Assembly: GCA_910585405.1 (NCBI GenBank)
Contig: CAJUDO010000012.1
Location: 16,105 to 80,104 of the forward strand
DNA length: 64,000 bases
Direction of reading: 5' to 3'
From: an uncultured Peptococcaceae bacterium
GTDB lineage: Bacteria > Bacillota > Peptococcia > Peptococcales > Peptococcaceae
Shown here: positions 3,185-56,016 of the stretch, one piece after another
Layout of the letters: every line of letters begins with the position of its first letter
How positions within the stretch are numbered: position 1 is the first letter of the stretch
Notes under the pieces: generated by a model
What the model was told of the DNA's origin: nothing
Databases searched by the model: none
The model's input: only the letters and a program-made list of their open reading frames with translations
Translations under genes and position numbers: made by a program

Positions 3185-3279
3185 GCAAATAAGGAAAGCT
3201 TTTCTTAAAAGTTTATTGGACAAAAATATAATTATGAATTACAGAAAGGTAGTGTAGAACGGATTATGAAAAAATCGAA

Positions 3280-3412
3280 CCCCTTTCCTTGGTACTGACC
3301 GATTATATTTTACTTACGGAAACCCCGTCAAGGCTGAATTTAACGGGCTTTCAGCCCGGCCTTGACTGAGTTCCCGACGTAAAATTTTGGTCACCCAAGC
3401 TAAAGAAAGGGG
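3280..3412 (+). ncRNA. Long imperfect hairpin / structured leader RNA of unknown class
   Basis: Hand-checked pairings: CCCCTTTC/GAAAGGGG, CTTGG/CCAAG, TGACC/GGTCA, TTACG/CGTAA, GTCAAGGC/GCCTTGAC, plus an apical CGGGC-TTTCA-GCCCG hairpin. Confidence 0.35.
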
Positions 3413-3514
3413 AGGTAAAGGCTTTTAACCTCTGAAACCATTGAATTTACTGGGTTTGAGCCGATTTTGGGCATATAAAGTTGACACTATCTACAGAAAT
3501 TAGGAGGATGAAAA

Positions 3515-5675: not shown

Positions 5676-5929
5676 AATTTTTTATAATATCTACATTCTT
5701 TTATCAGGAATATGGCCTTTAAAAGCCCTATTCCTGATATTTTTTGTTTCTTCACATAGGATATGTGAATGTCAATAAAAATGTGAGCCGCTTGCTGAAG
5801 AAAATTTAAGCCAGTTCTCCAAATAGTCTTTAGGTGATAGACATGGCTATTCATATCTAACATCTAAGAAGAAAATGTTAAATAGTCGATCGTGGCAACT
5901 GCCATTTTTGCAATTCATTTTATTTTCTT

Positions 5930-6859
5930 TTAACTGTTCATATCCTGGAAACGTTGGCTTTCCCGTTCCAGCAATTCAATTACCTTTTGTTCTGGCGGCG
6001 TCATGGGATGATCACCATGATGAAGCCATCCTACAGACATCGTGACGTCAAATTCCGGCACATCTAGCTTGCACAATTGTACACTGTAGGTTCGATTGCT
6101 GTTTTCAATCTCTTTTTCTGGCATAATTAACATCGCTTCCGTACTAGCTACATACTTACGCAGATTGGCCAAATCATTGATAGAGACAACTTCTCTCTGA
6201 TAACCTCGCTGTTTAAAGAAATTGTAGGTCAGTTCATCCATTTTAAAAGCTAAGGAAACCAAGTCATATTGCAGAAGTTCCGAAAAAGCAATTTGTTTTT
6301 TCCCACACAGAGGATGATTTTTTCCCACACAAATACATTGCCGATCCTGGAAGATTTGTTTGTACTCCAAATGATAACGATGCAGTTCCGTAATGATATC
6401 GCTTTCATTGAGTGCATTAAAATTGATGAATCCCAAGTCCAATTCCTTTTGTGCGACAGCTTTGATAATATCTTTAATATATTGGCGTTGCGTTAGGACA
6501 TAAAGTCCCGGATACTGCCGCTTTACCTGAATCATTACATCAGTAATAATATTCATGCAAAAATGACTGCTGCCGCCGATACGTACCTCGCCGGTAAGTT
6601 CATCACTGTTAAAACCGGCTGCCAGTAGAGCGTCTACTTCTTCTATGATAGCCTTTGCCCGAGCTAATACCGCTTTGCCTTCTGTTGTAAAGGAAACGCC
6701 GCGCTTACTGCGATTGAGGATAGTGGTGCCCAGCTCTTCCTCCAAATTGATTAGTGCCAAGCTGACTGTAGATTGGGAAATGTACAGTTCTTGAGCTGCA
6801 CGGGAAATAGAGCCGTACTGCTCTACTGCTACTAAAAATCTGAATTGATTTAGTTGCAT
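5930..6859 (-). CDS. LysR-family transcriptional regulator
   Basis: N-terminal wHTH MQLNQFRFLVAVEQYGSISRAAQELYISQSTVS. GAGGTG RBS before the ATG at 6859. The upstream 35 aa of the track ORF were discarded. Confidence 0.85.
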   Translation of the reverse strand: MQLNQFRFLVAVEQYGSISRAAQELYISQSTVSLALINLEEELGTTILNRSKRGVSFTTEGKAVLARAKAIIEEVDALLAAGFNSDELTGEVRIGGSSHFCMNIITDVMIQVKRQYPGLYVLTQRQYIKDIIKAVAQKELDLGFINFNALNESDIITELHRYHLEYKQIFQDRQCICVGKNHPLCGKKQIAFSELLQYDLVSLAFKMDELTYNFFKQRGYQREVVSINDLANLRKYVASTEAMLIMPEKEIENSNRTYSVQLCKLDVPEFDVTMSVGWLHHGDHPMTPPEQKVIELLERESQRFQDMNS

Positions 6860-25767: not shown

Positions 25768-26169
25768 GCACATGTTTTCAAAACCGACAGGGATGAGTGG
25801 TGCAGCTTTGGAAAGCAGTGTCGCTGACACAAGCAAACCTGCCGACAACGAAACGTCGGTATAATAAAATATCAGGAAGTATAATGAAAAAGCGGAAGGA
25901 ATCTCTTTGCAGATACCTTCTGTTTTTTACAGCTCTTTATATAACAGAAGTAGCTTTTACAATGAATATGAGCTTTTATATTTAGGAGGGAAGAATTGCT
26001 TGATTTGTGATACTGGTAATTTACAGGAGAGTGTAAGCGTAAAGAAAGGTATAAATGAGAATAAAGTATTTGAGTTTGTTCCAAACCAAAAGATAAGTAT
26101 CTTTATTTTGTTATCTGTTAAAATGAAACAAGAAAAAAGATATTAATAATTTTAGGTGGTGACAAAATT

Positions 26170-27081
26170 TTGCGTATTGAACAATTAGAATATATGATGG
26201 AAGTGTCAAAAGTTTCTTCACTGACTACAGCTGCAGAAAATTTATATATGACACAGTCGGCTTTAAGTCGTTCTATTAAAGCTTTAGAGGAAGAGTTGGG
26301 TGGATGTTTGTTAGAGCGTAATTCAGAGGGAGTCTCTTTAACTCAGGCAGGAAAAGAGCTTTTAGGAGATATGGAGCATATACTAAAAGAAATAGATATT
26401 TTCCGTGAGAAGGCATCTGTTATTTTTGAGACAAGTAAGAAATCTAAAGAAAGTATGGAACTAGTTATTTATTCTTTAAGCGGAATTATAGATGCATTAT
26501 TTCCAAAAACCTTAAAACTTTTCAATCGAAAATATAAGAATGTGAAGATTCGAGTTAAAACGGTAATGTTATTGGAGGCGGTTGAATTAATAAATAGTAG
26601 TTGTCAAGGTGTAATTATCATTAATAACTTGAATTCTATTTGGGATAGCGAGTTAGAAAAAAGTGAAAAAGCTTGTAAATTACTATTTGTAGAACAATAT
26701 GCAGTGGTTATGAGAAAAGATTCTTTTTTGGCGAGGAAAAACTTTTTAACAAAAGAAGAGTTAGTGGACTATAAATGTATTATGCATCATAATGGTATGG
26801 ATTATGATGCATTCTTAAATCGCAATACAAACAAAGAAGAAAAATTTGATATATTGTTATGTAGTAATAATCCTGAAGTGGTAAAAGATATGATCTTGGA
26901 ATACAATGCAGTGTACATAGCTGCAAATACAGTTGTGAAAAATTTCTATAGCAATTATTCTGAATTAGTGTCGGTTCCATTGAAAACGGGTAGAGGAGCA
27001 TTGTATGCGATATATGATGAAAAAATTGATAATGTTCCATTAATTGATGAATTTTTAGACTGCATAAAAAAAGCAAGATAG
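26170..27081 (+). CDS. LysR-family transcriptional regulator (TTG start)
   Basis: wHTH VSSLTTAAENLYMTQSALSRSIKALEEELG. Same strand and immediately upstream of the permease-GRE-SDR genes. Confidence 0.8.
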   Translation: MRIEQLEYMMEVSKVSSLTTAAENLYMTQSALSRSIKALEEELGGCLLERNSEGVSLTQAGKELLGDMEHILKEIDIFREKASVIFETSKKSKESMELVIYSLSGIIDALFPKTLKLFNRKYKNVKIRVKTVMLLEAVELINSSCQGVIIINNLNSIWDSELEKSEKACKLLFVEQYAVVMRKDSFLARKNFLTKEELVDYKCIMHHNGMDYDAFLNRNTNKEEKFDILLCSNNPEVVKDMILEYNAVYIAANTVVKNFYSNYSELVSVPLKTGRGALYAIYDEKIDNVPLIDEFLDCIKKAR

Positions 27082-27085
27082 CGAG

Positions 27086-27122
27086 AACCTATGTCAAAAT
27101 AATAGTTGGCATAGGTTTTTTT
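27086..27122 (+). terminator. Intrinsic terminator
   Basis: AACCTATG-16 nt-CATAGGTT followed by T7. Confidence 0.65.
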
Positions 27123-27336
27123 ATGGACTTTTAATAACAATTAAGGTATGAAAAAAAAGAATAGGTGACAGGGGGAATACATGAATAATAAGAATTTCAC
27201 ACTTAGAGAAAAGAATGATAAACTAAATTTATCGTTAACGAGAATTTATGAAAAAAGAGGAGGAAGATAGAACTTTAAAAATTTACAAAATGAAATTTGC
27301 ACACAATAATCATAATTTGCGTTAGGAGTGAATTTT

Positions 27337-28722
27337 ATGTCAGTTTCTCAAAACGATAAAATGAAGATTGATAAGAAAATATTTGCTTGGATTGTGGCAA
27401 TTTTTGTTCCAATAGTTATTTTGTTAATTCCAGAAACAGAAATCTTCAGCTTACAAATTAAGTTGTTCCTTGCAATTACGGTGTTTGGTATTGTAGTGAT
27501 GTGTTTTGAATTAATGGATTACATGGTGCCGGCTTTGTTGATACCGTTAGCATATTATTTATGTAAAGTTTCTTCGGCTGCAGTTGCATTTGGAGCATGG
27601 ACAAGTTATTTGCCTTGGATGTTTCTAGGAATGTTTATCATTACAGAATGTTTTGAAAGAATTGGTTTAATTTCAAGAGTTGCTTATTGGTGTGTTGTAA
27701 AAATTGGTGGTGGTTTCAAAGGATTGGCAATTTCTGTGCTTGTTGCAGGTATTATTTTGTCTTTGGTGTTGCCTGGAGGAAATGCGTTTGTACCTCTAGC
27801 GATGTTTGTCTTGGGCATTTGCCGTGCAAACGGCTGGGAATGCACAAAAGAATCTACAGTTTTAATGATGTATGCTATGTTAAGTACGTACACAGCCTCA
27901 AAGTTTTTATTGGGTCCGTCATTTCTTCTGATGGCTGGAATGGTTGGTGTTACAGAAGGAGTTACTTTTTTTAGGTTCTTATATCATAGTGCAATTTTTA
28001 TAGTATGGATGATATTGATAGCTTTATTAATTTGGTTTTTAATTAAACCAGAGGGCAATATGCATTCCCAAAAGTATTTTGTTGAAAAATATAAAGAAAT
28101 GGGCAAAATGTGTAGTGACGAAAAAAAAGGTAGTTTTGTGGCGATTCTTTTAGTATTAGGGATTTTTACAATGTCTATTCATAAAATTGATATGGGTTGG
28201 TTATTTGTTCTAGGAGCATGTTTATTATATTTTCCAGGGATTAAAATTGGTCATGCTGAAGACATAAAAAAGGTGAATTTTACAATGCCATTTTTTGTAG
28301 CAGCCTGTATTTCTATTGGGAATGTTGCTACCAGTTTGGGAATTGGACAGATTATTGCAGATTTAGTTGTCCCACATATGGAAGGCTTGAGTATAACAGG
28401 AGTATATTTGTGTATTTGGTTCTTTTTATGTGTAGCTAATTTTGTCATGACACCATTTGCCTTGATTGCTTCTTTTACGGTGCCTGTGGTTGATATTACG
28501 AGTAGTATGGGAATTCCTGTTTTACCCACGTTATATTGTTTTGGGTATGCTACCAGTCAAATATTATTGCCATATGAATATGTTGCATATTTGCTGATGT
28601 TCTCATTTGGGACAATGACGATGAAAAATTTTGTAAAAGTTTATGGAAGCAAATTGGCACTGAGCGGGATATTTCTGGCATGTTGCGTAATACCATATTG
28701 GAAGTTTATTGGAATTTTATAG
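27337..28722 (+). CDS. ArsB/NhaD-superfamily (SLC13/DASS-like) anion permease
   Basis: About 12-14 TM, 461 aa, with a central hydrophilic loop. Overall resemblance to anion/dicarboxylate permeases. Family call is tentative. Confidence 0.55.
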   Translation: MSVSQNDKMKIDKKIFAWIVAIFVPIVILLIPETEIFSLQIKLFLAITVFGIVVMCFELMDYMVPALLIPLAYYLCKVSSAAVAFGAWTSYLPWMFLGMFIITECFERIGLISRVAYWCVVKIGGGFKGLAISVLVAGIILSLVLPGGNAFVPLAMFVLGICRANGWECTKESTVLMMYAMLSTYTASKFLLGPSFLLMAGMVGVTEGVTFFRFLYHSAIFIVWMILIALLIWFLIKPEGNMHSQKYFVEKYKEMGKMCSDEKKGSFVAILLVLGIFTMSIHKIDMGWLFVLGACLLYFPGIKIGHAEDIKKVNFTMPFFVAACISIGNVATSLGIGQIIADLVVPHMEGLSITGVYLCIWFFLCVANFVMTPFALIASFTVPVVDITSSMGIPVLPTLYCFGYATSQILLPYEYVAYLLMFSFGTMTMKNFVKVYGSKLALSGIFLACCVIPYWKFIGIL

Positions 28723-28750
28723 TGGTGGGAAAAAACAAGGAGGAATTATT

Positions 28751-31231
28751 ATGGAATGTTGTGTTAAAAAGTTAACTTTAACTCCACAAGAACATTGGCA
28801 TTTAAATGGAGTATATCCAGAGATGCAAGAACGGCAGAGAGCATTTCGTATTTATGAGAAAATTAGAAATTGTCCTGTTACAGTAGATATGTATCGTGCA
28901 CGGCTATTTACAGAATCATTTAAGTTGACAGAGGGGCAACCGCTTCATTGGCGATGGGCACAAGCATTAATGCATATTGCGGAAAATATGCCAATTGTAA
29001 TAGATGAAGATGATGTTATCGTGGGAAAAATGACAGGCAAAATGGGACGTTATGCGGTAGTTTATCCTGAATTGGAAGGCCCGACATTATTGGATTTAGA
29101 AAATGCATATGATAGACCATCAAGTCCGGTGAAAATTTCGAGCGAGGACTTGAAAATACTAAAAGAAGAAATCTATCCTTATTGGAAAGATCGAAGTTTT
29201 GCTCAAGATTTTGCAGGAAATCTGCCAGAGGAAACAAGAAGACTGTTATATGGTGATGATCCTAAAAATTTTAGTCCTATGAGTTCTATGATAGGGCAAA
29301 CGGCGACGACAAGATCTACATTAAATTTTAATTTTAATTATGAGTATTTACTTAATCGTGGTATAGCAGCGTTACGTAAGGAATCGGAAATGCATATAAC
29401 AAAAATAGAAAGCGAACCAGCGTTAATTGCCGAAAAAAAATCATTTGTAGATGCCGCACTTTTAACTTGGGATGCATTTAGTTTATTTATAGAGCGGTAT
29501 GGTTTGGAAGCTGAGCGTTTGATAGGGACTGAAAGAAGGGAAACACGCAAGGAAGAATTAAAGGAAATTGTTGATTGTTGTTTATGGATTGCGCATAATG
29601 CTCCAAGAACTTTTAAAGAAGCACTACAATTACAGTGGTTCGTTGTAGTTTTTGCATGTCTAGAGCAGAAAATAGGAGCAGCTTTAGGTAATGGACGCAC
29701 AGATCAACATTTGTATCCATTTTATAAAAATGATATAGAAAATGGCAGATTGACACGTGAAGAGGCAAAACGTTTATTTGAGTATTACTGGTTAAATATG
29801 GCTCAGAATCCGATGGTGCCATTGACCAATTCTGCATCTAAGTCGTTTGAAGCATATGCACATTTCGAAACCGTTACGATTGGTGGAGTTGATAAAAATG
29901 GTAATGATGCAACAAATGAGTTATCTTATGTTATTTTAGAATCTAAAAGAGGCTTTCCGATTCCATATCCAGATTTAGCGGCTAGAATTCATTCTGGAAC
30001 ACCAGATAAATTTTTAAAAGCTTGCTGTGAGGTTATTAAAGATGGGCAAGGATTTCCTAAGTTGTTAAATGATGAAGAAATTGTTCCGTTATATGTTGCT
30101 AAAGGTGCAACGTTAGCGGATGCCTATAATTATGCTTGTTCTGGTTGTACAGAAGTTCGTATTTTTGATAAGGAGACGTATATTACGGGTGGAGGATCTG
30201 TTAATTTAGGTGCCATCATTGAAACGGCATTACACAACGGGCGGATGAAAGTAAAAGGAGAGAAACCAATTGGCGTAGAGACAGGAGACCCTAAAGATTT
30301 TGATAGTTTTGAAAAATTTTATAATGCGATAAATATACAAATGAAGTATGCTTTGAAAAACTTAATTATTCAACAAGTAGTTGCAGAAAAGGTAAAGGCG
30401 AAAAAATTAGCTGCTCCGTTTTGTTCCGTTATGACGAAAGCTTGTAGAGAGCAAGATATTGATATTCACCAATATGTACCAAACAGTTTTAGAACAGCAA
30501 ATATAAATCTAATTGGATATGCTACCTACATCAATTCAGTAGTGGCAATAAAAAAATTAGTATTTGAAGATAAGAAATATACAATGGCAGAGATTCTTGA
30601 AGGAATAGATGCAAATTTTGATGGGTATGAAGTTATGCGACAAGAATTATTACACGCTCCAAAATATGGAAATAATGATAATTATGCCGATTCAGTGGGA
30701 TTAGCCTTAGATAGAGAGGTACAAGAATATTTGGCACAGCATAGGGGTGCTTATGGAGAAATTTTCGAAACAAGAGTAATTCCTATTACTGGACATATCT
30801 CTTATGGTTGGCTAGTACAAGCGACACCAGATGGGAGATTGGCAGGTACGCCTCTTTCGGAAGGCACTGCTGGATCCGCTGGCACAGAAAATAACGGCCC
30901 AACAGCGATTTTACTTTCAAATAAAAAAGTAAAAAATGAAGGGTATGCAGAACGCGCAGCAAGATTATTAAATATTAAATTTAGTCCAAGTGTTGTAGCA
31001 GGAGATGAAGGAACGAGACGTCTGATGTCATTTATTCGTACGTGGTGTGACCTAAAGTTATGGCATGTACAATTTAACATTGTGAATAAAGAGACAATGT
31101 TAAAAGCACAAAAAGATCCAGAGAATTATAAAGATTTAATTGTACGTGTAGCTGGATATAGTGCTTACTTTACAGAGATGACAAAAAAATTGCAGGATGA
31201 AATTATTGAACGTGCAGAATTTGATGTGTAA
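28751..31231 (+). CDS. Glycyl-radical enzyme, PFL2/eliminase (dehydratase/lyase) class
   Basis: C-terminal glycyl-radical motif LIVRVAGYS (Gly codon 31154-31156). Cys loop CSGCTEV with the Cys-x-Glu pair (Cys codon 30146-30148). About 826 aa. AAGGAGG RBS before the ATG at 28751. Confidence 0.9.
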   Translation: MECCVKKLTLTPQEHWHLNGVYPEMQERQRAFRIYEKIRNCPVTVDMYRARLFTESFKLTEGQPLHWRWAQALMHIAENMPIVIDEDDVIVGKMTGKMGRYAVVYPELEGPTLLDLENAYDRPSSPVKISSEDLKILKEEIYPYWKDRSFAQDFAGNLPEETRRLLYGDDPKNFSPMSSMIGQTATTRSTLNFNFNYEYLLNRGIAALRKESEMHITKIESEPALIAEKKSFVDAALLTWDAFSLFIERYGLEAERLIGTERRETRKEELKEIVDCCLWIAHNAPRTFKEALQLQWFVVVFACLEQKIGAALGNGRTDQHLYPFYKNDIENGRLTREEAKRLFEYYWLNMAQNPMVPLTNSASKSFEAYAHFETVTIGGVDKNGNDATNELSYVILESKRGFPIPYPDLAARIHSGTPDKFLKACCEVIKDGQGFPKLLNDEEIVPLYVAKGATLADAYNYACSGCTEVRIFDKETYITGGGSVNLGAIIETALHNGRMKVKGEKPIGVETGDPKDFDSFEKFYNAINIQMKYALKNLIIQQVVAEKVKAKKLAAPFCSVMTKACREQDIDIHQYVPNSFRTANINLIGYATYINSVVAIKKLVFEDKKYTMAEILEGIDANFDGYEVMRQELLHAPKYGNNDNYADSVGLALDREVQEYLAQHRGAYGEIFETRVIPITGHISYGWLVQATPDGRLAGTPLSEGTAGSAGTENNGPTAILLSNKKVKNEGYAERAARLLNIKFSPSVVAGDEGTRRLMSFIRTWCDLKLWHVQFNIVNKETMLKAQKDPENYKDLIVRVAGYSAYFTEMTKKLQDEIIERAEFDV

Positions 31232-42019: not shown

Positions 42020-42081
42020 GCTGTCTCTTCTTTTCCTTTTTACAAACTGTATGGTGAAAGGAAAAGTGGGACAGCTTTTTT
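42020..42081 (+). terminator. Intrinsic terminator after recX
   Basis: GCTGTC..CTTTTCCTT / AAGGAAAAG..GACAGC long stem followed by T6. Confidence 0.7.
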
Positions 42082-42157
42082 GTATTTCTGTCCGGGATAT
42101 GCTATAATAAGGCAATCATTTATCAGAAATTTCAGTTATGTAACGGGGGCAGACACG

Positions 42158-45100
42158 ATGCTGACACAGATGATCACAGAAACCTTATTGGGCGCACTGA
42201 CAGGGTATGTGACCAATCACACGGCAATTCGCAGTTTATTTCAGCCGGGCGGTGTGATTGAGCATACGCGGGATGATTTTGCCAAAGAGGCAGGCGAGCT
42301 GCTGGAAGAACAGGTATTGACCCAAGCGGTATTAAAACAGCAGTTAGAATTGCCGCAAATGCAGCAAGCCCTGAATGATGCTTTGGAGGATTTTTGGCTG
42401 CGGGCGCTGCCGCAGTCCTTTGCCGGCAAAACACTGGGGGATTTGCCGGACTATGACGAGTGTATGAAAACGGTGCAGAAGCTTGTTGTACAATTTGCAG
42501 AGCAAGAGCGGGAAAGGATTTTGCTCTGGCTGAAAACTTATTTACCGGTGCAGGAAATTTTTACGGAAGCCCAGTGTCAACAACTGAGCGGGCAGATGGA
42601 AACACTGCTGCTGGAAACGGTACAGCAGGAGGATTTGGCGGTGCGTTTTTTGGACGCGTGGAAGCAGGAGAAGGGCGCACAAACTTTGGAGGAATTAGGT
42701 CTCAGGGATTTGTGCAGTAGTTTGGTCAAGCAGGCGGCGCAGCAGGGCAAAGAGTGGAAGGTTCAGTTGCTGCAGCAGCATGAGACAGAGCTGAAGGCGC
42801 TGCTGCTGGAGACCATTCAAAAAATACAGCTCCACTCTGTACTCTCTCAGCTGGATGAACAAATGGCGCAGTATACGCTGCGGCAATATCTCCATTGTGA
42901 CGAAGAAACGCTGTCGCGACTGCTGTATGAGGCTGCGGGCAGTGAAGCAGGGCAGCAATTGCTGAAGGTTGTTGCCGATGAATTGGTGAAGGCATTGGCA
43001 ACGGTGGATGCGCCCATCGGGGAAGTGATTCCTGAAGATCTTCTCACTGGCATTGCCCAGCTGCTGGAACAACAAATGCCCGTGATATTGGAAAGCCTGT
43101 TGGAGTGGCTGCAGGGAGAAGCGCAGGCGGTAGCTGCTATGCTGGAATCGGCAGTAAATGAAGTAGCCGCGGAGCTGGGCGGCATGAAAGGCATGCTGTT
43201 GGCACAGTTGAAGGAGAGCTTGCTGGAACAGGTTTTGCAGGAGACAAATCTGGGCGACTTGGTGCAGCAATTTCTGCTGACACCGCAAACCACAAAAGAG
43301 GCTGCGGCTTTGCTGACAGCGACAATCAAAGAGCAGCTGACTATATATCCTGTAGGAGCTTTAGTGCAGCGCATGAACGGCAATGGGCAACTGGCACAGG
43401 TTGTGCAGCTTTTCCTCACGAAAAATATACAGCGTCTGCTTTCTGGGCGGAGCGCCGCTTTTCTGCAGTCCATATTGGCATGGCAGCCAGGCTCCTTTCA
43501 TTTGACGGAACGAAAAACAGAACTAGAGCATTGGCTCACGGAGATACTCTGGCAGGGGATGGTGCAGCTGGACGTAGAAGCGCTGTTAAAGGACAAGGGA
43601 GATTGGCTTTGCCAAGTGCCGGCTTCTCAATTGCTGCCGTGGGAGGATGAACAGGTTCGCGCTGGGGTGAACGGCGCAATCCGGCAGGGATGCAAGCATC
43701 TTGCTGAGACACTGCCGCAAATTTCCTCCGATGCGTTCTATCGGCCATTGTATCATGCTTTGGAGCAGGCTTTGCGGCAACGAGGTACAGCATGGCTGGC
43801 GCATTGGACATCTTCCTGCCCGATGGAGCAGATATTGGTAGCACTGCAGGGAGAGCTGCTGGCACAAAAGCCGCAAATGGTTCAAGGATTGACGCAGCTA
43901 GGAATGGAATTGCTGGAAGGACGTCTGAGTAAGCTGGCGGAAGGGCAAATTCAGAAGCTGAGCAATGAGGACATGCGCAAGCTGGTGGAGGATTTTATGG
44001 GCAGGGAGCTGCAGCCTTTGAACTATCTGGGTGCTGGAATGGGGGCTGTGGCTGGTATGACAGTGGGAACGACAATGTCCGCTGCATTGCCGATAACTGC
44101 TGCCGCTGCGCCTGCAGTGCTTTTAGGCGCTTTGGCAGGGAAGTCCTTTTTATTTGGCGCAGTGGGCTATGGGACCAACTGTGCGGCGGTAAAGGGTTTG
44201 TTCTGGCCTTATGAGCCGGTGGGCGGTATGGAAATGCTACAAGGTGTGATTCCAAAGCAAAAGGCGAGATTTGCACACAGTATGGGCAATCTGGTGGAGC
44301 GCTATGTGCTCAATGAGGAGATTTTGCAGCAGAAACTGGAGTACAGTGAAAAAATTCTCTCAGCCAACATCAAACAGCTGGCGGAGAACGAAAAAGTCTG
44401 GCAGTCTTTTATGGCTGAGGTGGTGCACAGACGCAGAGTGCTTGTGCGAGCTTGCTTGGCACAGCTGGAGAAACAAAGCCTGTCAAAATATGACGAGGTA
44501 CTGTTGCATTTGGGCAGCCAGCCCTTTGCTTTTCTGCGCAATGATCTCTGGAAAACGGTGCAGCTGGAAAACTATCTTTTGCCGTGGGCAGAGCGATGGT
44601 TGCAGAGACAGCTGCATGGCGAGATTCCGCTGAACGCAATTTTATCTGACGAACAATTTGGCCGGTATGGGGTGCAATGGCTGGGTGGACAGCGTGTGCC
44701 GGATGTGTGCCGGTGGGCTGATACGCTACTGCACAGTGAAAAAAGTGTGGTGCAGCTGTTGACGCAGGAAAAGCTGCAGAGTTATGCGGAAACGATACAG
44801 GATAGAGTGCACAGCTGGTTGAGTGAACCTGCTCACGGCGGGGCGTTGGCACAGCAGCTGAGCCAATTTTTTACGGTAGAACGACTGAAGCAATGGCTGG
44901 AAAGATACAGCAGTGCATGGCTGGAAACGAATCTGTCCGGTTTGCTTGTGCTGGTGGAACAGACCTGCTTGAAGCTGGTCCGGCAAAAAGAGCGTGACAT
45001 TGTGGAACGTGTCCAGCGTGCCATTTTTTCCAAGATGGGCTTTATGCAGCAGATGGGCTACAGTATGATGGGTGGAGATGAGATTGTTGCCCAGGTAGTG

Positions 45101-46018
45101 GCGCGCATTTTGCATCAGAAATTGCCTATCTTTTTGTCGCTGAAGAGTAAGGAGTTGCAACAGCTGCTTGCGCGCTGCTGGCAGCAGACACTTTTTCCAG
45201 CACTGTTGGAGAGTCCTGTGAAGCAGGAGCACATTGGAATATTGCTATACACCCTTTTGCGGCAGCCGGCAGTGCATCGGGGCATGGCTGACATTGCCAA
45301 GGAGAGCATTCTTATTCTGGCGCAGCAGCCGCTGAACAGCTGGGGGAGATGGCTCAATCCAGAGCCGCTTTTAGAGAAGGCACAGCTGCAATTGGGGTTT
45401 CAGTGGAAGCTGAACAGCAGCTTGGCAGTACAGCACTGGCAGCCGCTCTTGCAGGATTTCTATAGGGAAACCATCGGAAAGACTACTTTGGAACAGCTTA
45501 CCAGAGACTTTCATGGAACAGTGCCCTTGGCCCAAATCCTGCAGCATGATGCCCTTGCCGAAAATTTGCGCAGCGCCCAGCTGAGATTGCAGGAAAACAT
45601 GGCCATTACCCGTCCCCAGCAGTGGCTGTGCTGGACGGAGTTTACAGAAGCCTTAGGACAGGCTCTTCAGGGATTGGAGGAAGACCAATCCTTCCGAGGC
45701 TGGTGCCAATATGAAGGAGAAACGTTGCTGGTTCGATTGTCTGCTGACTGGCCCAATCTGCTGCCGTCCAAGACCAGAGAGGCGCTGATGGATGTTTTGC
45801 TGCAAGCGTTCTTTGCTGCGGCCAGAGCCCATGGCAAGGACCTCTTGTCAGCGATGGAGCTGTCCCAATTGGCAGAAAGACAATTGCTATTGATGGACAG
45901 TGCGCATTTAGAACAGGTGGTGCGGGGATTTGCCAGTCAATATTTGACCCATATTGAGAATCGCGGTTGGCTGGGTGCGGTATTTGCGCTGCCTGGGATG
46001 CTGCTTTACTTGCTATAA
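42158..46018 (+). CDS. Giant (about 1286 aa) DUF445-like protein with Q/L-rich helical expansions
   Basis: Two DUF445/YheB-like segments (GALTGYVTNHTAIRSLFQP, and GAVGYGTNCAAVKGLFWPYEP...GVIPKQKARFAHSMGNLV). C-terminal LTHIENRGWLGAVFALPG. Confidence 0.65.
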   Translation: MLTQMITETLLGALTGYVTNHTAIRSLFQPGGVIEHTRDDFAKEAGELLEEQVLTQAVLKQQLELPQMQQALNDALEDFWLRALPQSFAGKTLGDLPDYDECMKTVQKLVVQFAEQERERILLWLKTYLPVQEIFTEAQCQQLSGQMETLLLETVQQEDLAVRFLDAWKQEKGAQTLEELGLRDLCSSLVKQAAQQGKEWKVQLLQQHETELKALLLETIQKIQLHSVLSQLDEQMAQYTLRQYLHCDEETLSRLLYEAAGSEAGQQLLKVVADELVKALATVDAPIGEVIPEDLLTGIAQLLEQQMPVILESLLEWLQGEAQAVAAMLESAVNEVAAELGGMKGMLLAQLKESLLEQVLQETNLGDLVQQFLLTPQTTKEAAALLTATIKEQLTIYPVGALVQRMNGNGQLAQVVQLFLTKNIQRLLSGRSAAFLQSILAWQPGSFHLTERKTELEHWLTEILWQGMVQLDVEALLKDKGDWLCQVPASQLLPWEDEQVRAGVNGAIRQGCKHLAETLPQISSDAFYRPLYHALEQALRQRGTAWLAHWTSSCPMEQILVALQGELLAQKPQMVQGLTQLGMELLEGRLSKLAEGQIQKLSNEDMRKLVEDFMGRELQPLNYLGAGMGAVAGMTVGTTMSAALPITAAAAPAVLLGALAGKSFLFGAVGYGTNCAAVKGLFWPYEPVGGMEMLQGVIPKQKARFAHSMGNLVERYVLNEEILQQKLEYSEKILSANIKQLAENEKVWQSFMAEVVHRRRVLVRACLAQLEKQSLSKYDEVLLHLGSQPFAFLRNDLWKTVQLENYLLPWAERWLQRQLHGEIPLNAILSDEQFGRYGVQWLGGQRVPDVCRWADTLLHSEKSVVQLLTQEKLQSYAETIQDRVHSWLSEPAHGGALAQQLSQFFTVERLKQWLERYSSAWLETNLSGLLVLVEQTCLKLVRQKERDIVERVQRAIFSKMGFMQQMGYSMMGGDEIVAQVVARILHQKLPIFLSLKSKELQQLLARCWQQTLFPALLESPVKQEHIGILLYTLLRQPAVHRGMADIAKESILILAQQPLNSWGRWLNPEPLLEKAQLQLGFQWKLNSSLAVQHWQPLLQDFYRETIGKTTLEQLTRDFHGTVPLAQILQHDALAENLRSAQLRLQENMAITRPQQWLCWTEFTEALGQALQGLEEDQSFRGWCQYEGETLLVRLSADWPNLLPSKTREALMDVLLQAFFAAARAHGKDLLSAMELSQLAERQLLLMDSAHLEQVVRGFASQYLTHIENRGWLGAVFALPGMLLYLL

Positions 46019-50148: not shown

Positions 50149-50355
50149 TGCGTTGTAATGCACAACTTTTTTAATGTTATTTTTCGGTAGTTTTGCTTGC
50201 TATGCCATCATAAAGAGAGCAAAATACAGTTTTCTGCATTTTACTCTCTTTACTATTTATCTTTTTTTAACTTAATGACATTAGTTTAGGGTAGTGCTAC
50301 CGTTATTGTAAGTGATGAAACATTCAAGAAACGATGTGATTCGTTATCAGATCAA

Positions 50356-51015
50356 TTAAATAATTTCGGATAAGAAATTTTTAAGGGGTAATAGTTTATT
50401 GCTATTCCAGTTAAAAGCGCCTGCTTTAGCGGCTTCGCCAATTTTTAAGGAAACATATTCATCCGTAACAGAAAAATAGGTATGCAGTTTTGTCTTAAAT
50501 TCATGCGGATAGGATCGATTATATTTATTTTCCAAGTTATTCATAAAACCTCGTATTTCATATAAAATATTGGAACTATTTTCTTCAGACAAGATAGATA
50601 GACAAAGATCTTCTAATGTTCCAACTTGAACAAATGTATCGCATGTTGGAAATAGTAAATAACCTACTTTAGGAACATGGCCATACCAACAATGAGGAGT
50701 ATCTGGAATTGCAAGATTACAATTTCGTAACGTTGATTTAATATCAGCTATAGCTTTCTTAGAATCTCTTTCGGCATCTCGAATGATTAACAATGATTCA
50801 ACTCGATCAAAACCTTCCATATTCTGTAATGTGCGAATGAAATTAGTTAGGTCTGTTATTCCGCCAAAATCCATAACCTGAAAATCGTTAGAGAATGCAG
50901 ATACATTGGAAAGTGCATCGCTGTTTAGGTAAGTGATGAGTACTTCTTCCGCATCACGCCCTTCACATAAAATAAGGTGTTTCTTTCTGATACTGTTGTT
51001 TGTTTTGCGTGCCAT
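50356..51015 (-). CDS. Toprim-like small protein (DUF4435/DUF3226/RloB class), partner of the ATPase
   Basis: ILCEGRDAE (Toprim-like Glu) and LLIIRDAERD (acidic cluster). Start abuts the ATPase stop (TAAATG). Confidence 0.55.
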   Translation of the reverse strand: MARKTNNSIRKKHLILCEGRDAEEVLITYLNSDALSNVSAFSNDFQVMDFGGITDLTNFIRTLQNMEGFDRVESLLIIRDAERDSKKAIADIKSTLRNCNLAIPDTPHCWYGHVPKVGYLLFPTCDTFVQVGTLEDLCLSILSEENSSNILYEIRGFMNNLENKYNRSYPHEFKTKLHTYFSVTDEYVSLKIGEAAKAGAFNWNSNKLLPLKNFLSEII

Positions 51016-52086
51016 TTACCGAACCTCCATACTGAAATTAATGGCGGAACGCACTAAATCGCCAGAATATCTGAAAGCTTTATTTTCTCCATCTGCCCGC
51101 TCGATTCGATAATAGCAAAACGCATTCTGCATATTTGCCGTTTCAATGCCATCAATCGCTCCATTTATACATTCATAACTGTGAGTAGTTGCTATAATTT
51201 GACAATTATTTTTCTGCGCAACAATAGAAATAATTTCCCACAATTTAGCATACATAGAAAAATGAAAACCAGTTTCAATTTCATCAATTAGGATTACTGA
51301 ATTTGGGTTTGCAATAATAGACAGAACAATGAATAGCAGTTTGTTAATGCCATCACCAGCCAGCTTGAGCGGCAATAACTTTTCCCCCATTTTTGCATAA
51401 AGCTGAATTTGACCTTGAAACGCAATTGTTGATATATCACATATAGATGCATCAATAATTCTTAATACATCAATTACCTGTTGTTTTTTGCCTTCTATTT
51501 CCAATTTACCAAACCACTCGGTAATTACACTATCATTATTTATAATTGAAGCGTTAATATATTGCGTAAACGGCATAGGAAGCAGTTGGTTATTGTCACT
51601 ACTGGTATGAACATTTCGCAACACACCAGAAGAACTTACAACAAAATGACCATCTTCGGTGTAATCACCATGTGAGAAATGAAACTTCAATGTATATGTT
51701 GACTTAGCTGAAGAAATAAATTGATTGAAAACATCTTGGGGAGCGCCAGCAGCATCAGATGGGACAAAAGAATCGTCTCGGGAGTATGTCAGAACTGTTT
51801 CCACATCGTCTAGTTGCATAGAAATACGCAATGTTTCTTTCGTATTCAAATCATAAAACATTGGTGCCCATAGGACAGATGGATCCGTAGACATAGATAA
51901 TCCGCGAAATCTATTGATTTTTACAAAAGACTCTGGCGCAATATGATCAATTGCCAGGAAGATTCCTTCCAAAATCGAGCTCTTACCTGCATTATTTTTT
52001 CCAGATATTAGAGTAACTTGACCAAGTTCTGGAAGATGAATTTTTTTTAATCCACGAAAGTTTTCAAAAGTTAGATTGTTAATCAT
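51016..52086 (-). CDS. ABC/SMC-fold AAA ATPase (AAA_21/AAA_15-like)
   Basis: MINNLTFENFRG...GKNNAGKSS Walker A, Walker B VILIDEIETGFH, H-loop ATTHS. AGGAGG RBS before the ATG at 52086. Confidence 0.8.
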   Translation of the reverse strand: MINNLTFENFRGLKKIHLPELGQVTLISGKNNAGKSSILEGIFLAIDHIAPESFVKINRFRGLSMSTDPSVLWAPMFYDLNTKETLRISMQLDDVETVLTYSRDDSFVPSDAAGAPQDVFNQFISSAKSTYTLKFHFSHGDYTEDGHFVVSSSGVLRNVHTSSDNNQLLPMPFTQYINASIINNDSVITEWFGKLEIEGKKQQVIDVLRIIDASICDISTIAFQGQIQLYAKMGEKLLPLKLAGDGINKLLFIVLSIIANPNSVILIDEIETGFHFSMYAKLWEIISIVAQKNNCQIIATTHSYECINGAIDGIETANMQNAFCYYRIERADGENKAFRYSGDLVRSAINFSMEVR

Positions 52087-52344
52087 GGGATAGCCTCCTA
52101 AATCACGATTATTGAAAACATTTTTATTATACCCTATATAAAAAGAAATTACCAGAAAAAACTGTAAACGACAGGGAAAAGAGTAGGAAGTAAACATTGT
52201 GGCTTCTCCAGCCTTATTGGAAACATTGATGTTATATATTCGAGAAAGGCTAAATCGGAATTGTGAAATAGGCGTCCGGGAGAAGAGAAACAGGCATCTC
52301 TCGGACTTTGGCATTGTTCCGATAAAAATATTATTCTGATTCCG

Positions 52345-52480
52345 TTGCCATTGTTCCGATAATTGGGTATACTACTATTTGAAATAAGATATGGATTTAT
52401 CTGCCATGGCATTGAATGGCGCATAGTTTGAAGGAGATTACCCTGTCAGCTTTTCGCAAAAGCGGACGGGGTAGTTTTTT
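52345..52480 (+). ncRNA. Candidate ~100-nt sRNA bracketed by a near-consensus promoter and a strong terminator
   Basis: TTGCCA (52345-50), 17 nt, TATACT (52368-73). A 14-bp stem at 52441-52471 followed by T6. Divergent from the ATPase gene. Confidence 0.4.
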
Positions 52481-52759
52481 GCCTTCATGGGGTTGATGAT
52501 ACTGCCAAACAAAAAGGTTTTGCGGTGAAAGAAAGTTTAAAGAAAATGTTAAAATTTTGTACCCGAAAATCGAAGCATCATATAAAAAATATTCTTATAG
52601 AAAAAAACAAAAAAACACAGAAAATACTGGTAAAACATAGTAGATATATGTTTTTTTTAGTACAAACAGCAGAAAAATTGTCTTTGCACTTTTTCAGTGT
52701 AAAGAAAGTGTAAAAGTCCTAAAAGTTATAAATTTTCGAGGGGCTTTTTTTGTACCCTT

Positions 52760-52811
52760 AAATGCACATATATAGTGATATTCATTCAAATATCACTATA
52801 TATGTGCATTT
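52760..52811. repeat. Perfect 21-bp inverted repeat with a 10-nt loop
   Basis: AAATGCACATATATAGTGATA (52760-80) and TATCACTATATATGTGCATTT (52791-811), nested inside a 16-bp outer inverted repeat (52721-36 / 52824-39). Confidence 0.85.
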
Positions 52812-52879
52812 TCATTTTGTTTAAAAATTTATAACTTTTTAGACGCTGCTGCGAAAAAAATATTTGGAGGTGAGAGGAC

Positions 52880-53347
52880 GTGACAGGTGCTTCATCGCAA
52901 ACACCGCCAAAGTGTGGGAACAGTGCGGTCATCCGTATGGACAGCTATGAGGACAAGAATCCTCAAGGCACCCTTTATCTGCTCCACACCCAGGAAGAGA
53001 TTGCCTTTACCAATCTGTTTGAACTGTTAGAGCAGTTGGACCGTTTAGCGCAGTGCAGCGAGAGCAGGGCATCCTGCAATCCAGGCATGCAGCGGGTCGT
53101 TACAGGAAAACGAGAGGATGTTGCCTTGCGGTCGACGCCGGAGATACAGGGCGACATTGCAACATTTCAGATAAAAATATTTTTCTGTGCCAATGCCACC
53201 TGGCAGGGCAGCCTGGGCTGGAAAGAGGGCAAACAGAAGCTGCGTTTTCGCAGCGCGTTGGAATTTGTAAAGTTATTGGACAGCGCGTTACCCCAACCGC
53301 CGCTGCAAAAAGGCGAATTGTGCTGTGAAGCGGCTCATGCAGGATAA
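52880..53347 (+). CDS. Hypothetical 155-aa cytoplasmic protein, first gene of the SipW cluster
   Basis: GTG start with a GGAGGTG RBS. No signal peptide. C-terminal block ATFQIKIFFCANATWQGSLGW...FRSALEFVKLLDSAL. Confidence 0.55.
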   Translation: MTGASSQTPPKCGNSAVIRMDSYEDKNPQGTLYLLHTQEEIAFTNLFELLEQLDRLAQCSESRASCNPGMQRVVTGKREDVALRSTPEIQGDIATFQIKIFFCANATWQGSLGWKEGKQKLRFRSALEFVKLLDSALPQPPLQKGELCCEAAHAG

Positions 53348-53373
53348 ACGTGCTGGGCAATCGATAAAATTTT

Positions 53374-53943
53374 ATGGATACTGTGAAGAAAATTTGGAAT
53401 AGCGCCACAACAGTGCTGGTGGCAGTCGTGGTCATCCTGGCCCTATTGCTGGCAGGACCGCGACTGATGGGCATGCAGGTATTTACCGTGTTGTCAGGCT
53501 CCATGGAGCCGGTGTATCACACCGGGTCGCTTATCTATGTGCGGGACGTGGACCCCATGGAGATCGAGCTGGGACAGGTGATTACTTTTATGCTGGATGA
53601 GGACACTGTGGCCACCCATCGGGTGGTGGAAGTGGTACCCGATGAGACAGACCATTCCGTGGTGCGGTTTCGCACCAAAGGGGACGCCAACGACGCCGAG
53701 GACGGCGGCTTGGTGCATTGCAACAATGTGCTGGGTACGCCGGTGTTCACCATTCCCCAGCTGGGCTATCTGGCCAATTATATTCAGAAGCCGCCGGGCA
53801 TGTACCTGGCCATCTCCGCCGGAGCGCTGCTTTTGATGCTGGTGTTCCTGCCCGATTTGTTCGGCAGCGACGAACCGGAAGAAAAGAAGAAGCGCAGGAA
53901 AAACAAGGGGAAAAGGGCGGAGAAACCACAACAGGAGGAATAA
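53374..53943 (+). CDS. sipW: SipW-type (ER/archaeal-type) signal peptidase I
   Basis: N-terminal TM, catalytic LSGSMEP, ATHRVV, KGDANDAEDG. C-terminal TM and a K/R/E-rich tail. Confidence 0.85.
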   Translation: MDTVKKIWNSATTVLVAVVVILALLLAGPRLMGMQVFTVLSGSMEPVYHTGSLIYVRDVDPMEIELGQVITFMLDEDTVATHRVVEVVPDETDHSVVRFRTKGDANDAEDGGLVHCNNVLGTPVFTIPQLGYLANYIQKPPGMYLAISAGALLLMLVFLPDLFGSDEPEEKKKRRKNKGKRAEKPQQEE

Positions 53944-53995
53944 GCCGCAAGGCTTCCTAAAATATGAAATTTAATTTTATTTAGAGGGGGATTTT

Positions 53996-54595
53996 ATGAT
54001 GAAATCTGTAAAGAAAGCAATCGTTGCCGCTTTATGTGCCGGCACACTAGTAGTAGGTTCCGTAGCAGGAACCATGGCGTATTTGACAAGCGAGGATAAA
54101 GTAGAGAACACATTTACAGTGGGAAATGTGGCTATTACATTGGACGAAACCGATGTAGATAACAGCACACAAGACAGCGAGCGTGACCGAGCAAATACTT
54201 ATAAATTGATGCCAGGCCACACCTATATCAAAGACCCAATTGTTCATGTAGATAAAGATAGTGAAGATTGCTATTTGTTTGTGAAAGTAGATAATGAAAT
54301 TACCGCTATTGAAGGTGACACTACTGTTGCTGTTCAGATGGCTGCAAAGGATTGGGTAGCTGTTGATGGTGTAGACGACATCTATGTTTATAGTACAGGT
54401 GATACTCCTACTGCTGTTACTGCTGATGAGAATAAGATCGTATTTGAAAACTTCACAATCGCTGGAACAGTAGATAACGATAAATTAGCAAATTATGCAA
54501 ATAAAACAATTATAGTAACTGCTTATGCAATTCAGGCTAATGGCTTTGAAGGTAAAACTGCTTCCGAAATCTGGAACGCAGCTAACTTTAAATAA
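53996..54595 (+). CDS. TasA/BsaA/camelysin-like subunit with SipW-cognate signal peptide (1)
   Basis: N-terminus KKAIVAALCAGTLVVGSVAGTMAYLTSED...NTFTVGNV. Shares MPGHT..KDP..V...SEDCYLFVKV with its paralogues. Confidence 0.8.
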   Translation: MMKSVKKAIVAALCAGTLVVGSVAGTMAYLTSEDKVENTFTVGNVAITLDETDVDNSTQDSERDRANTYKLMPGHTYIKDPIVHVDKDSEDCYLFVKVDNEITAIEGDTTVAVQMAAKDWVAVDGVDDIYVYSTGDTPTAVTADENKIVFENFTIAGTVDNDKLANYANKTIIVTAYAIQANGFEGKTASEIWNAANFK

Positions 54596-54645
54596 TCGCA
54601 ATCTTCTAACGATTTAGCTCATTTCGCGAGAAAGGAGGAAATTGC

Positions 54646-55230
54646 GTGAAAACGATGAAAAAAACGATTGCCTTGCTGGTGGCAGTATCCATGATTGTCG
54701 GCTGTGCCATCGGCGGCACGCTGGCGTGGCTGACCCATTCAACTGGTCCTGTGACGAATACCTTTACGACCAGTGATATTGAGGTAACATTGGAAGAAAC
54801 AACGGGCGATACGTACAAGATGATTCCTGGCTATACCATTACAAAAGACCCGAAGGTGACTGTGACCACTGGCTCTGAGGAATGCTATTTGTTCGTTAAA
54901 ATGGAAAAGTCTAATAATTTTGATATTTTTATGACTTATGAGATAGCAGAAGGTTGGACTGCCTTGAATGGTATTGCTGGTGTGTATTATCGTGTGATTA
55001 AAACTGCAGATATGGACAGACCGCACAACATTTTGAAGGATGATCAGGTTGCTGTCGAGGATACTGTCACAAAAGCCATGATGGATGGCTTGACGAGTGA
55101 AACCTATCCGACCTTGACTGTTACTGCATATGCATCACAATTGTACAAGAATAATACGGAAACATTCGCCGCAACAGAGGCATGGGAAAATGTTCCGGCT
55201 AATTCGAGTACACAAACAGACGGAGAGTAA
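54646..55230 (+). CDS. TasA/BsaA/camelysin-like subunit with SipW-cognate signal peptide (2)
   Basis: GGTLAWLTHST..NTFTTSD, MIPGYTITKDPKVTV..SEECYLFVKM. GTG start with a GGAGG RBS. Confidence 0.8.
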   Translation: MKTMKKTIALLVAVSMIVGCAIGGTLAWLTHSTGPVTNTFTTSDIEVTLEETTGDTYKMIPGYTITKDPKVTVTTGSEECYLFVKMEKSNNFDIFMTYEIAEGWTALNGIAGVYYRVIKTADMDRPHNILKDDQVAVEDTVTKAMMDGLTSETYPTLTVTAYASQLYKNNTETFAATEAWENVPANSSTQTDGE

Positions 55231-55278
55231 CGCTTAAATAAAAAAACTCAGATAAAAATTAATAAGGAGAGATTGATT

Positions 55279-56016
55279 ATGAAAAAGAAATTGGTAACTG
55301 GCGCATTAATTGCAGCCTTTGGCGCAGTAGCCATCACCGGCGGTACCTTAGCTTATTTTACAGATACCGATGCAAAAACAAATACCTTTACCGTTGGGAA
55401 TGTTGCTATCGACTTAATTGAAAATTTTGGAGATAACGATCCAACTACACCAGAAAAATTGTTGCCTGCTACCGGTTCTGCACAAGCTGGTACTTTGCAG
55501 AATGGCATCACCAAAGAAGTTAGTGTAAAAAACACAGGTTCTGAAGATGCTTATGTTCGTGTACACATTGCAATTCCTAGTATGTTAGACAATGGAAATC
55601 CAGAGTTTGATGCAGGGAAAAATGCTTTGCATTTCAACTATACAAATGATTCTATTGGAGCAGGCAAATGGGACTGGTCTACGACAGCAGGAGCACCGTA
55701 CCAAGGTAATTGGAACTATTATGAAACAACGATTGATGAAATTGGCTATAATGTATACGTTGTAACTTATGGTACAGCTTTGAAACAAGGAGAAGAAACT
55801 CAAGAAAAAGCTATGCATCAAGTTTATTTAGACAAGAATACATCTAATGAAGCAATTAACTCCTATGTAGAAACTTTAGGAGAAAACTGGCAGATTAAAG
55901 TGCTGGCAGAAGGTGTACAGGCAGCTGGTTTTGATGATGCTTATACAGCATTAAATACTGCTTTTGGTGTACCTGGTGAGTATACTGTTGACTGGAGTGG
56001 AGCTACTGCACAGTAA
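55279..56016 (+). CDS. TasA/BsaA/camelysin-like subunit with SipW-cognate signal peptide (3)
   Basis: GGTLAYFTDTDAKTNTFTVGNV. SEDAYVRVHI block. Confidence 0.8.
   Translation: MKKKLVTGALIAAFGAVAITGGTLAYFTDTDAKTNTFTVGNVAIDLIENFGDNDPTTPEKLLPATGSAQAGTLQNGITKEVSVKNTGSEDAYVRVHIAIPSMLDNGNPEFDAGKNALHFNYTNDSIGAGKWDWSTTAGAPYQGNWNYYETTIDEIGYNVYVVTYGTALKQGEETQEKAMHQVYLDKNTSNEAINSYVETLGENWQIKVLAEGVQAAGFDDAYTALNTAFGVPGEYTVDWSGATAQ

Follow-up and report, generated by a model that had tools for sequence, protein, structure and literature searches.

An acquired ABC ATPase–DUF3226 gene pair in an uncultured Peptococcaceae bacterium, a candidate AbiL-like/PDC-M38 defence module

We analysed a stretch of 64,000 nucleotides from an uncultured Peptococcaceae bacterium (GenBank assembly GCA_910585405.1, contig CAJUDO010000012.1, positions 16,105 to 80,104; hereafter 'the window', whose own numbering is used throughout), and within it two abutting genes, at 50356–52086, that encode an ABC ATPase of 356 aa and a 219-aa protein of the Pfam family DUF3226. 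The pair is a horizontally acquired, accessory insertion of low G+C content. As judged from sequence, it belongs with the modules that combine an ABC ATPase with a stand-alone Toprim protein, and at the family level it corresponds to the PADLOC candidate system PDC-M38. By sequence and by analogy with characterized systems, we read it, with moderate confidence, as an AbiL-like/PDC-M38 defence-type module in which the ATPase would control a metal-dependent nuclease, and we infer an anti-phage activity for the pair.

Pairings of an ABC ATPase with a Toprim protein have been highly successful in bacterial immunity (Old, Gabija, retron Eco8, PARIS, AbiL, Mad3-4), and mechanisms are established for few of them. 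The window pair is a minimal version, consisting of an ATPase without a coiled coil and a putative nuclease core, and it could be a tractable model of how such nucleases are gated. The copy described here is one further member and not a new principle, as the pair follows a well-known design and the PDC-M38 family has already been catalogued as a candidate. What our analysis adds are the family names, the boundaries of the islet, the evidence from empty sites, the breadth of the family and a proposed residue-by-residue match to the OLD catalytic set.

Acquisition and co-inheritance of the pair

The first-pass annotation of the window had described an SMC/ABC-type ATPase gene that directly abuts a gene for a 219-aa protein with acidic motifs, both on the strand opposite to their neighbours. 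These observations were borne out: the 356-aa reading frame contains the motifs ISGKNNAGKSS, LIDEIETGFH and ATTHS, its stop codon and the start of the next frame form TAAATG, and the 219-aa frame holds ILCEGRDAE and IIRDAERD. The pair lies on the minus strand and is flanked by genes on the plus strand, namely those of recA-recX-DUF445-sbcD-sbcC and, at its other end, those of a SipW/TasA-like fibre operon. The ATPase and DUF3226 genes are probably translationally coupled.

To compare the site among strains of the same species, public assemblies were searched for the neighbouring 155-aa protein, and 70 conspecific contigs were read. The pair is present at this site in 68 of them. In the other two (L073, GCA_964319875.1, and L076, GCA_965619745.1) the site is empty, and sbcC and a 69-aa open reading frame (ORF) lead directly into the fibre operon. 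When the window is aligned with these two contigs by blastn, a flank homology of 97–99% stops at 50148 and restarts at 52423, so that the foreign segment comprises 50149–52422; its 2274 bp are replaced in L073 and L076 by ~79 bp of unrelated sequence. No target-site duplication, flanking or terminal repeat, or integrase was found at the segment. Its G+C content is 34.8%, as against 43.5% for the rest of the window. Across the pair itself the value is 31–37%, compared with ~50–52% in the flanking genes, and at third codon positions it is 25–27% in the two genes and 52–59% in the flanking ones.

The suggestion that the AT-rich islet was horizontally acquired thus stands for 50149–52422, where empty sites and low G+C content coincide, but not for the adjoining AT-rich DNA at 52423–52880. 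The latter, a long palindrome included, is also present in the strains that lack the pair and is therefore native, and a foreign segment reaching as far as 52880 was rejected. Nor are the two genes core genes of all relatives, an outcome that would have told against the first-pass annotation, as the pair is absent from two conspecific contigs. With its empty sites, its low G+C content and a patchy spread across phyla, the pair has the accessory, mobile and strain-variable character looked for in defence systems.

Two other conspecific contigs are rearranged at this locus. In one (L069) an inversion places the pair after a truncated TasA-like gene, and in another (L072) the sbcC side is replaced by an IS256-family transposase (Transposase_mut). 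The junction looks like a hotspot of rearrangement.

Further afield, a scan of one genome per species gave 58 DUF3226 loci, among them loci from Lachnospiraceae, Oscillospiraceae, Erysipelotrichaceae, Helicobacter, Fretibacterium and Odoribacter, as well as Planctomycetota, Desulfobacterales, Nitrospirae, Chthonomonas, Spirochaetia and Dehalococcoidia. Of these 58 loci, which represent at least ten phyla, 45 have a full-length homologue of the ATPase immediately upstream in the same orientation, with an estimated spacing of −4 to +35 nt in all but one of the 45. At the other loci the ATPase match is partial or lacking, and most of these are contig ends or degraded copies. The identities of the ATPase and DUF3226 relatives to their counterparts in the window correlate strongly (Spearman 0.88, n = 45). 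The pair is a co-inherited unit, whose two genes have moved and diverged jointly across phyla.

The closest relative (L091) shares 81% nucleotide identity with the window over 1811 nt. The homology begins ~80 nt 5′ of the ATPase start codon, and its other end coincides with the stop codon of the small gene; the promoter and ribosome-binding region common to the two sequences includes CTGGTAATTTC and GTGATTTAGGAGGC. In the Lachnospiraceae relatives the pair stands alone, inserted between housekeeping genes, and in a relative with 73% identity its neighbours are an insertion sequence (IS) element together with an Mrr-like and a Fic gene. A survey of 146 neighbouring ORFs at 46 loci found a minority that match defence models, namely Mad3, HmaA, DrmD/DrmA, BrxH, DpdE and PDC-S15; the raw counts were four for mad3 and two each for HmaA, DrmD, BrxH and DpdE.

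Relatives of the pair also occur on plasmids. A tblastn search with the ATPase found full-length relatives (26–29% identity) on 155 plasmid records, ~138 of them from Klebsiella, and most of the Klebsiella records listed are ColE-type plasmids of ~4 kb. Of the 155 records, 139 were typed as non-mobilizable. The partner was checked on a single one, a 4167-bp ColE-type plasmid of K. pneumoniae (L085, NZ_CP070894.1), where the ATPase gene occupies 2579–3694 and the partner gene starts at 3694 and crosses the origin of the record to encode a 210-aa DUF3226 protein (6.6e-27; PDC-M38B, 3.9e-11). The distributed gene table does not list this second gene. At 5001–6745 of a Plesiomonas shigelloides megaplasmid (L086, NZ_CP027853.1) there is a canonical PDC-M38 pair (A, 2.8e-91; B, 1.3e-52), with the partner annotated in RefSeq as a DUF3226 domain-containing protein. 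The pair is located a few kilobases past P2-like tail genes (tape measure, tail protein X, gpD-like) and may sit at the end of a prophage.

The compact ATPase and its DUF3226 partner

The ATPase matches the Pfam families AAA_15 (expect value, E, 2.8e-23) and AAA_21 (5e-18). Its best PADLOC model is AbiLi (PDLC02336, 3.1e-56), with residues 1–356 aligned to positions 1–340 of 340, and it also matches PDC-M38A over the full length (4e-46). Partial matches were obtained to the PADLOC models of AriA (1e-23 on residues 202–307, and 3e-21), NsnB, PtuA, GajA, Old and Mad3 (7e-12). Its motifs comprise a Walker A (G29-x-N-N-x-G-K35-S), a signature-like G244-D-G246, a Walker B (L266-x-D268-E269), G273-x-H275, Q296, H302 and a C-terminal E-V-R. 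Among 50 homologues from genome loci and 36 from a protein collection, the Walker A, the G-D-G, the Asp-Glu of the Walker B, the G-x-H, Q296, H302 and the final E-V-R are invariant or nearly so. The AlphaFold2 model (predicted local distance difference test score, pLDDT, 85) has no long coiled coil, and its best Foldseek matches are Rad50 and SMC heads, PtuA of Septu and of retrons, retron Eco8 and GajA (E ~1e-12, template modelling (TM) score ~0.5). On these profiles, conserved motifs and fold matches, the protein can be classed as a compact ABC ATPase of Rad50 type within the defence-associated AAA_15/21 group, and it looks competent for hydrolysis. The SMC/ABC fold assigned to it at first pass is thus upheld, more precisely as a Rad50/PtuA/GajA-like ABC ATPase, by the AbiLi match and by Foldseek.

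The 219-aa partner had not been placed in a named family at first pass. It is in fact a member of Pfam DUF3226 (PF11536), one of the families that the first-pass annotation had proposed to check, with 74.4 bits against a cut-off of 27 (E 1.4e-20) and with residues 13–218 aligned to profile positions 2–206 of 208; NCBIfam gave no match. DUF3226 is a large family (2702 clusters at 50% identity, E ≤ 1e-3). Its best 150 representatives are almost all stand-alone proteins of 200–240 aa, and no fused ATPase–DUF3226 form was found among them.

In an alignment of 49 sequences that reaches down to 28% identity, and in which every sequence matches DUF3226, residues E18, G19, D21, D80, G132, E135 and K174 are invariant, and G52, R79, E82 and a few others are nearly so. 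The AlphaFold2 model (pLDDT 92; predicted TM score, pTM, 0.88) has the order b1 (13–17), helix, b2 (45–49), helix, b3 (74–80), helix, b4 (116–122), followed by five helices. In the Toprim signature, b1 is followed by a glutamate, b2 by a glycine and b3 by a DxD (PMC12065111, PMC6755086). In the window protein the glutamate following b1 is the invariant E18, the glycine after b2 is the near-invariant G52, and the motif that ends b3 is D80-x-E82, which makes it a DxE in this branch of the family; the DUF3226 protein of the Klebsiella plasmid relative has a classical D-A-D.

The conserved residues can also be set against those of Bp OLD, whose C-terminal region of ~205 aa consists of a Toprim and a helical domain and has the catalytic set E400/E404/D455/D457/E508/K562 (PMC6755086). 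The correspondence is read from order, spacing and predicted secondary structure and is not an alignment. Counted from E18 and from E400 (each at offset 0; metal A in Bp OLD), D21 (+3) would correspond to E404 (+4; metal B), D80 (+62) to D455 (+55; metal A), E82 (+64) to D457 (+57; metal A), E135 (+117) to E508 (+108; metal B, in the first helix of the helical domain in OLD) and K174 (+156) to the catalytic lysine K562 (+162). The conserved residues of DUF3226, of which E135 and K174 fall in the predicted C-terminal helices, thus appear to match the catalytic residues of Bp OLD in order, and their spacing is similar.

Profile comparisons of the wider family point the same way. The DUF3226 family consensus scores 23.2 bits against OLD-like_TOPRIM, exactly the gathering cut-off (E 1.1e-4). 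This is the sole recurrent second Pfam match among the 49 members, being found in 19 of them (best 6.4e-5), and it always spans b1 to a2. Among the PADLOC models, PDC-M38B is matched by 38 of the 49 (best 2.6e-16), AbiLii by seven, Mad4 by three and AriB by one (8.8e-3), and a few members match AriAB (3.4e-7), GajA and RT-Toprim. The family hidden Markov model aligns its 'lilcEGkDa' with 'LLVEGKTE' of P2 Old, albeit weakly. A sequence and profile search of the PDB with DUF3226 gave only 2p62 (P. horikoshii PH0156; E 1.3, over 'lilcEGkD'), a lead that was not confirmed with a closer DUF3226 query. A search for homologues of the Old C-terminus gave four proteins, and by tblastn only P2 itself among phages and none among plasmids.

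The motifs lend good support to the view that the DUF3226 protein is a Toprim/OLD-like nuclease, and it would serve as a putative metal-dependent nuclease effector. A conserved acidic site, whose lack would have spoken against the first-pass annotation, is present, with E18, D21, D80, E135 and K174 invariant in the 49 sequences.

Known systems, proposed mechanism and rival explanations

The annotation had likened the architecture of the pair to those of PARIS, of AbiL/RloB-type systems and of split OLD-family systems. The pair is AbiL-like and at the family level corresponds to PDC-M38, but it is not PARIS. The likeness to PDC-M38 lies in the two-gene architecture, in the full-length PDC-M38A match of the ATPase and in the PDC-M38B matches of most DUF3226 members; the difference is that the small protein of the window represents a divergent branch, which misses the PDC-M38B model that most of its relatives match. 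PDC systems are unpublished candidates, predicted from their occurrence within known defence loci. For AbiL of Lactococcus lactis, abortive infection has been shown by experiment (PMC13064643, PMC11464382); the system is grouped with PARIS and RloAB, and a 2026 review describes AbiLii as Toprim-like (PMC13064643). As in the window, an ABC ATPase is followed in AbiL by a small Toprim/OLD-like protein, and of the PADLOC models, that for AbiLi is matched strongly and that for AbiLii weakly. On the other hand, few DUF3226 members match the AbiLii model, and the figures of the review (212 of 453 aa aligned) suggest that the lactococcal AbiLi is ~100 aa longer (PMC13064643); tblastn with the window ATPase found no lactococcal plasmid. 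A PADLOC run on the pair might give the AbiL label or the PDC-M38 label, or might miss the B gene.

PARIS, a class 4 OLD-like system in which the ATPase sequesters a Toprim nuclease (PMC13064643, PMC11464382), is likewise split into an ABC ATPase plus a Toprim nuclease, and its AriA is matched in part by the window ATPase. However, AriB is a DUF4435 protein of ~35 kDa, whereas the partner here belongs to DUF3226 and has no Pfam match to DUF4435 at E ≤ 1. AriA, at ~55 kDa, carries coiled-coil insertions for hexamer assembly and trigger binding that the shorter window ATPase lacks. Because it has neither a DUF4435 partner nor a coiled-coil ATPase, the pair is not PARIS.

The OLD proteins (P2 Old in class 1; GajA and Bp OLD in class 2) resemble the DUF3226 protein in having a Toprim followed by a helical region, in the residue order E/E(D)/DxD(E)/E/K and in the size of the core (~205 aa in Bp OLD), and their ATPase fold is related to that of the window ATPase. 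They differ in that ATPase and nuclease form one polypeptide, in having Asp at the third motif position, where the window branch has Glu, and in giving no significant structural or pairwise profile match with the window protein. A fused OLD protein was rejected, given two separate ORFs with a TAAATG junction. Mad3-Mad4 of MADS and RloAB of Campylobacter also place an AAA_15/21 ATPase beside a small stand-alone Toprim-type protein (DUF4276 or RloB). Those genes are parts of larger loci for methylation or type I restriction-modification, whereas the window pair stands alone. The Mad3 and Mad4 matches of the window ATPase and of DUF3226 members are weak, and no RloB match was seen.

If the pair works as these comparisons suggest, metal A would be bound by E18, D80 and E82 of the DUF3226 protein, metal B by D21 and E135, and K174 would act as the catalytic lysine. 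Like AriA in PARIS and the ATPase domain in OLD and GajA, the ATPase would be both sensor and regulator: an ATPase oligomer would bind the nuclease and hold it inactive until it is freed or activated by a cue from the phage or by an altered nucleotide state. Two-metal cleavage of nucleic acid would follow, either as nicking and degradation of DNA, as in OLD and GajA, or as cleavage of tRNA, as in AriB, and would halt phage replication at the expense of host growth.

Several observations weigh against a defence module of this kind. No paper naming DUF3226 or PDC-M38 was found in the literature searched, and no experiment on either is on record. OLD-family proteins are not always defensive, Cran1 being an example. 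Within the species the cassette is near fixation, which is unusual for a costly abortive system, and the neighbours of homologous pairs are mostly housekeeping genes, with defence genes only a minority. No relative of the pair was found in phage records or viral contigs; the subfamily of the window was missing from phage records and plasmids, as searched by tblastn with the small protein, and from viral contigs, as searched by a pattern scan. The small protein itself matches its presumed relatives weakly: OLD-like_TOPRIM with 14.8 bits against a cut-off of 23.2, PDC-M38B with 21 bits (4.1e-5) and AbiLii (PDLC02338) with 24 bits (9.6e-6; residues 58–216 on model positions 13–121 of 125), and a comparison of the family with the single P2 Old sequence by hhalign gave nothing. 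Finally, Foldseek searches of PDB and BFVD with the DUF3226 model found no match at E ≤ 1e-3, and no Toprim, OLD or AriB structure reaches significance; primase, RloB-like and topoisomerase structures came up below the threshold only. Because of this last result, the Toprim assignment leans on motifs, topology and borderline profile matches. Of the resemblance to Toprim/OLD-type nucleases noted at first pass, what stands is a conserved acidic site in the Toprim/OLD arrangement, and what the structure search did not provide is a Toprim match.

A wider proposal, to which we give somewhat less than even weight, is that DUF3226 proteins are stand-alone OLD-type catalytic cores which, together with compact AbiLi-like ATPases devoid of coiled coils, form a distinct split OLD-like class of immune systems with its own trigger and nucleic-acid target. 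This class, if real, would range widely from gut Clostridia to archaea and would also be carried by very common small Klebsiella plasmids; the occurrence of DUF3226 on those plasmids, should it reflect defence, could bear on phage therapy.

The main rival to the defence-type module is a purely addictive role, in which the pair is chiefly a toxin–antitoxin (TA) module, with the nuclease as toxin and the ATPase as antidote, that stabilizes the DNA carrying it and has an incidental part, or none, in resisting phages. We consider this unlikely. Related pairs appear to be the main cargo of the small Klebsiella plasmids described above, where the partner gene was checked once, and the prevalence of non-mobilizable plasmids among the ATPase matches, together with the near-fixation of the cassette in the species, would also suit an addiction module. 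PARIS itself acts as a type II TA pair (PMC13064643), but that very example demonstrates that TA and defence are compatible. Moreover, the ATPase retains all of its hydrolysis motifs, for which a simple antidote has no need, and since empty-site strains exist, loss of the pair is tolerated.

Less likely again is that the small protein is a non-catalytic adaptor or regulator, of a generic Rossmann-like or flavodoxin-like fold, and that the output of the pair is something other than cleavage of nucleic acid. The Foldseek search favours such a view in that its best matches are lumazine synthase and generic alpha/beta folds (TM ~0.3), and the PDB sequence and profile searches gave no useful match either. 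It is hard to reconcile, though, with the complete or near-complete conservation, down to 28% identity, of five acidic residues and one lysine that stand at the Toprim/OLD catalytic positions, with OLD-like_TOPRIM as the sole recurrent second Pfam match, or with the classical D-A-D of the Klebsiella plasmid relative.

A housekeeping role in DNA repair or chromosome maintenance alongside the adjacent recA-recX-sbcDC genes, comparable to that of the OLD-family Cran1 in Sulfolobales, is highly improbable: the pair directly follows sbcDC, its ATPase resembles Rad50/SbcC heads, and Cran1 shows that OLD-like proteins can be non-defensive, but there are conspecific strains without the pair, its composition is foreign, and elsewhere it is patchy across phyla and found in unrelated contexts, never beside sbcDC, so that a functional link to sbcDC was rejected.

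Gene starts, signals and other features of the window

Coordinates of the pair and of the features around it are collected in Table 1.

Table 1. Features of the acquired locus and its surroundings (window coordinates).
Feature	Position	Strand	Description
ABC ATPase gene	51016..52086	-	356 aa; Rad50/SMC type, AbiLi / PDC-M38A type
DUF3226 protein gene	50356..51015	-	219 aa; predicted Toprim-like domain and helical region
Acquired low-GC segment carrying the module	50149..52422	.	2274 bp, strain-variable
Promoter and ribosome-binding site region of the pair	52087..52166	-	-35-like TGGTAA, 17-nt spacer, TATAAT, AGGAGG
Hairpin	50211..50252	.	inverted repeat I3: 19-nt arms, 4-nt loop, 89% complementary
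Two 18-nt direct repeats, TTGSCATTGTTCCGATAA, 37 nt apart	52308..52362	.	repeat family D2
Near-perfect palindrome, 20-bp arms	52760-52811		~70 bp 5′ of the 155-aa gene

The reading frame of the ATPase is open upstream as far as 52314, and public gene calls start it at an ATG at 52197, which gives a protein of 393 aa. We place the start at 52086 because the sequence there is preceded by AGGAGG (52099–52094) and TATAAT (52131–52126), because the ATPase homologues are all 348–362 aa long, and because the homology to the nearest relative begins only ~80 nt upstream. The longer form was rejected on the same grounds, and the 393-aa annotations look like a systematic mis-start in the assemblies. The −35-like TGGTAA lies at 52154–52149; a generic promoter scan did not include this TGGTAA/TATAAT site among those it listed.

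The hairpin sits between the small gene and the convergent 69-aa ORF/sbcC operon, is followed by a T-run on the plus strand and is likely a terminator. The two TTGSCATTGTTCCGATAA repeats fall within the acquired segment, upstream of the promoter of the module. The motif was not found at the loci of other species, and the homology of relatives stops short of the repeats; with no conservation elsewhere they were rejected as part of the module and may be a remnant or a local regulator site. An Rfam search of the islet gave spurious hairpin matches only, and there was no sign of an RNA component. The palindrome in the adjoining native DNA, for which Rfam likewise returned nothing but spurious miRNA-type matches, could be an operator or a terminator.

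The products of the fibre operon that follows (52880–56016 and beyond) are the 155-aa protein, a signal peptidase of the SipW type, several subunits resembling TasA/camelysin (Peptidase_M73) and a VWA protein of ~985 aa. The genes for the fibre subunits are lower in G+C content (39–44%), and the lengths of the subunits vary among conspecific strains (L059–L076; for example 198, 204, 218 and 230 aa), which suggests that the subunits are diversifying. Elsewhere in the window, a second low-GC stretch (25600–28900, 31–33%) contains genes for a LysR-type regulator (26170–27081) and a 464-aa membrane transporter (27328–28722), the latter followed by a glycyl-radical-enzyme-like gene, and is probably another acquired islet, of metabolic function. 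Between recX and sbcD, at 42080–46018, lies the gene for a very large DUF445 protein (1286–1312 aa), which is kept in all of the conspecific contigs.

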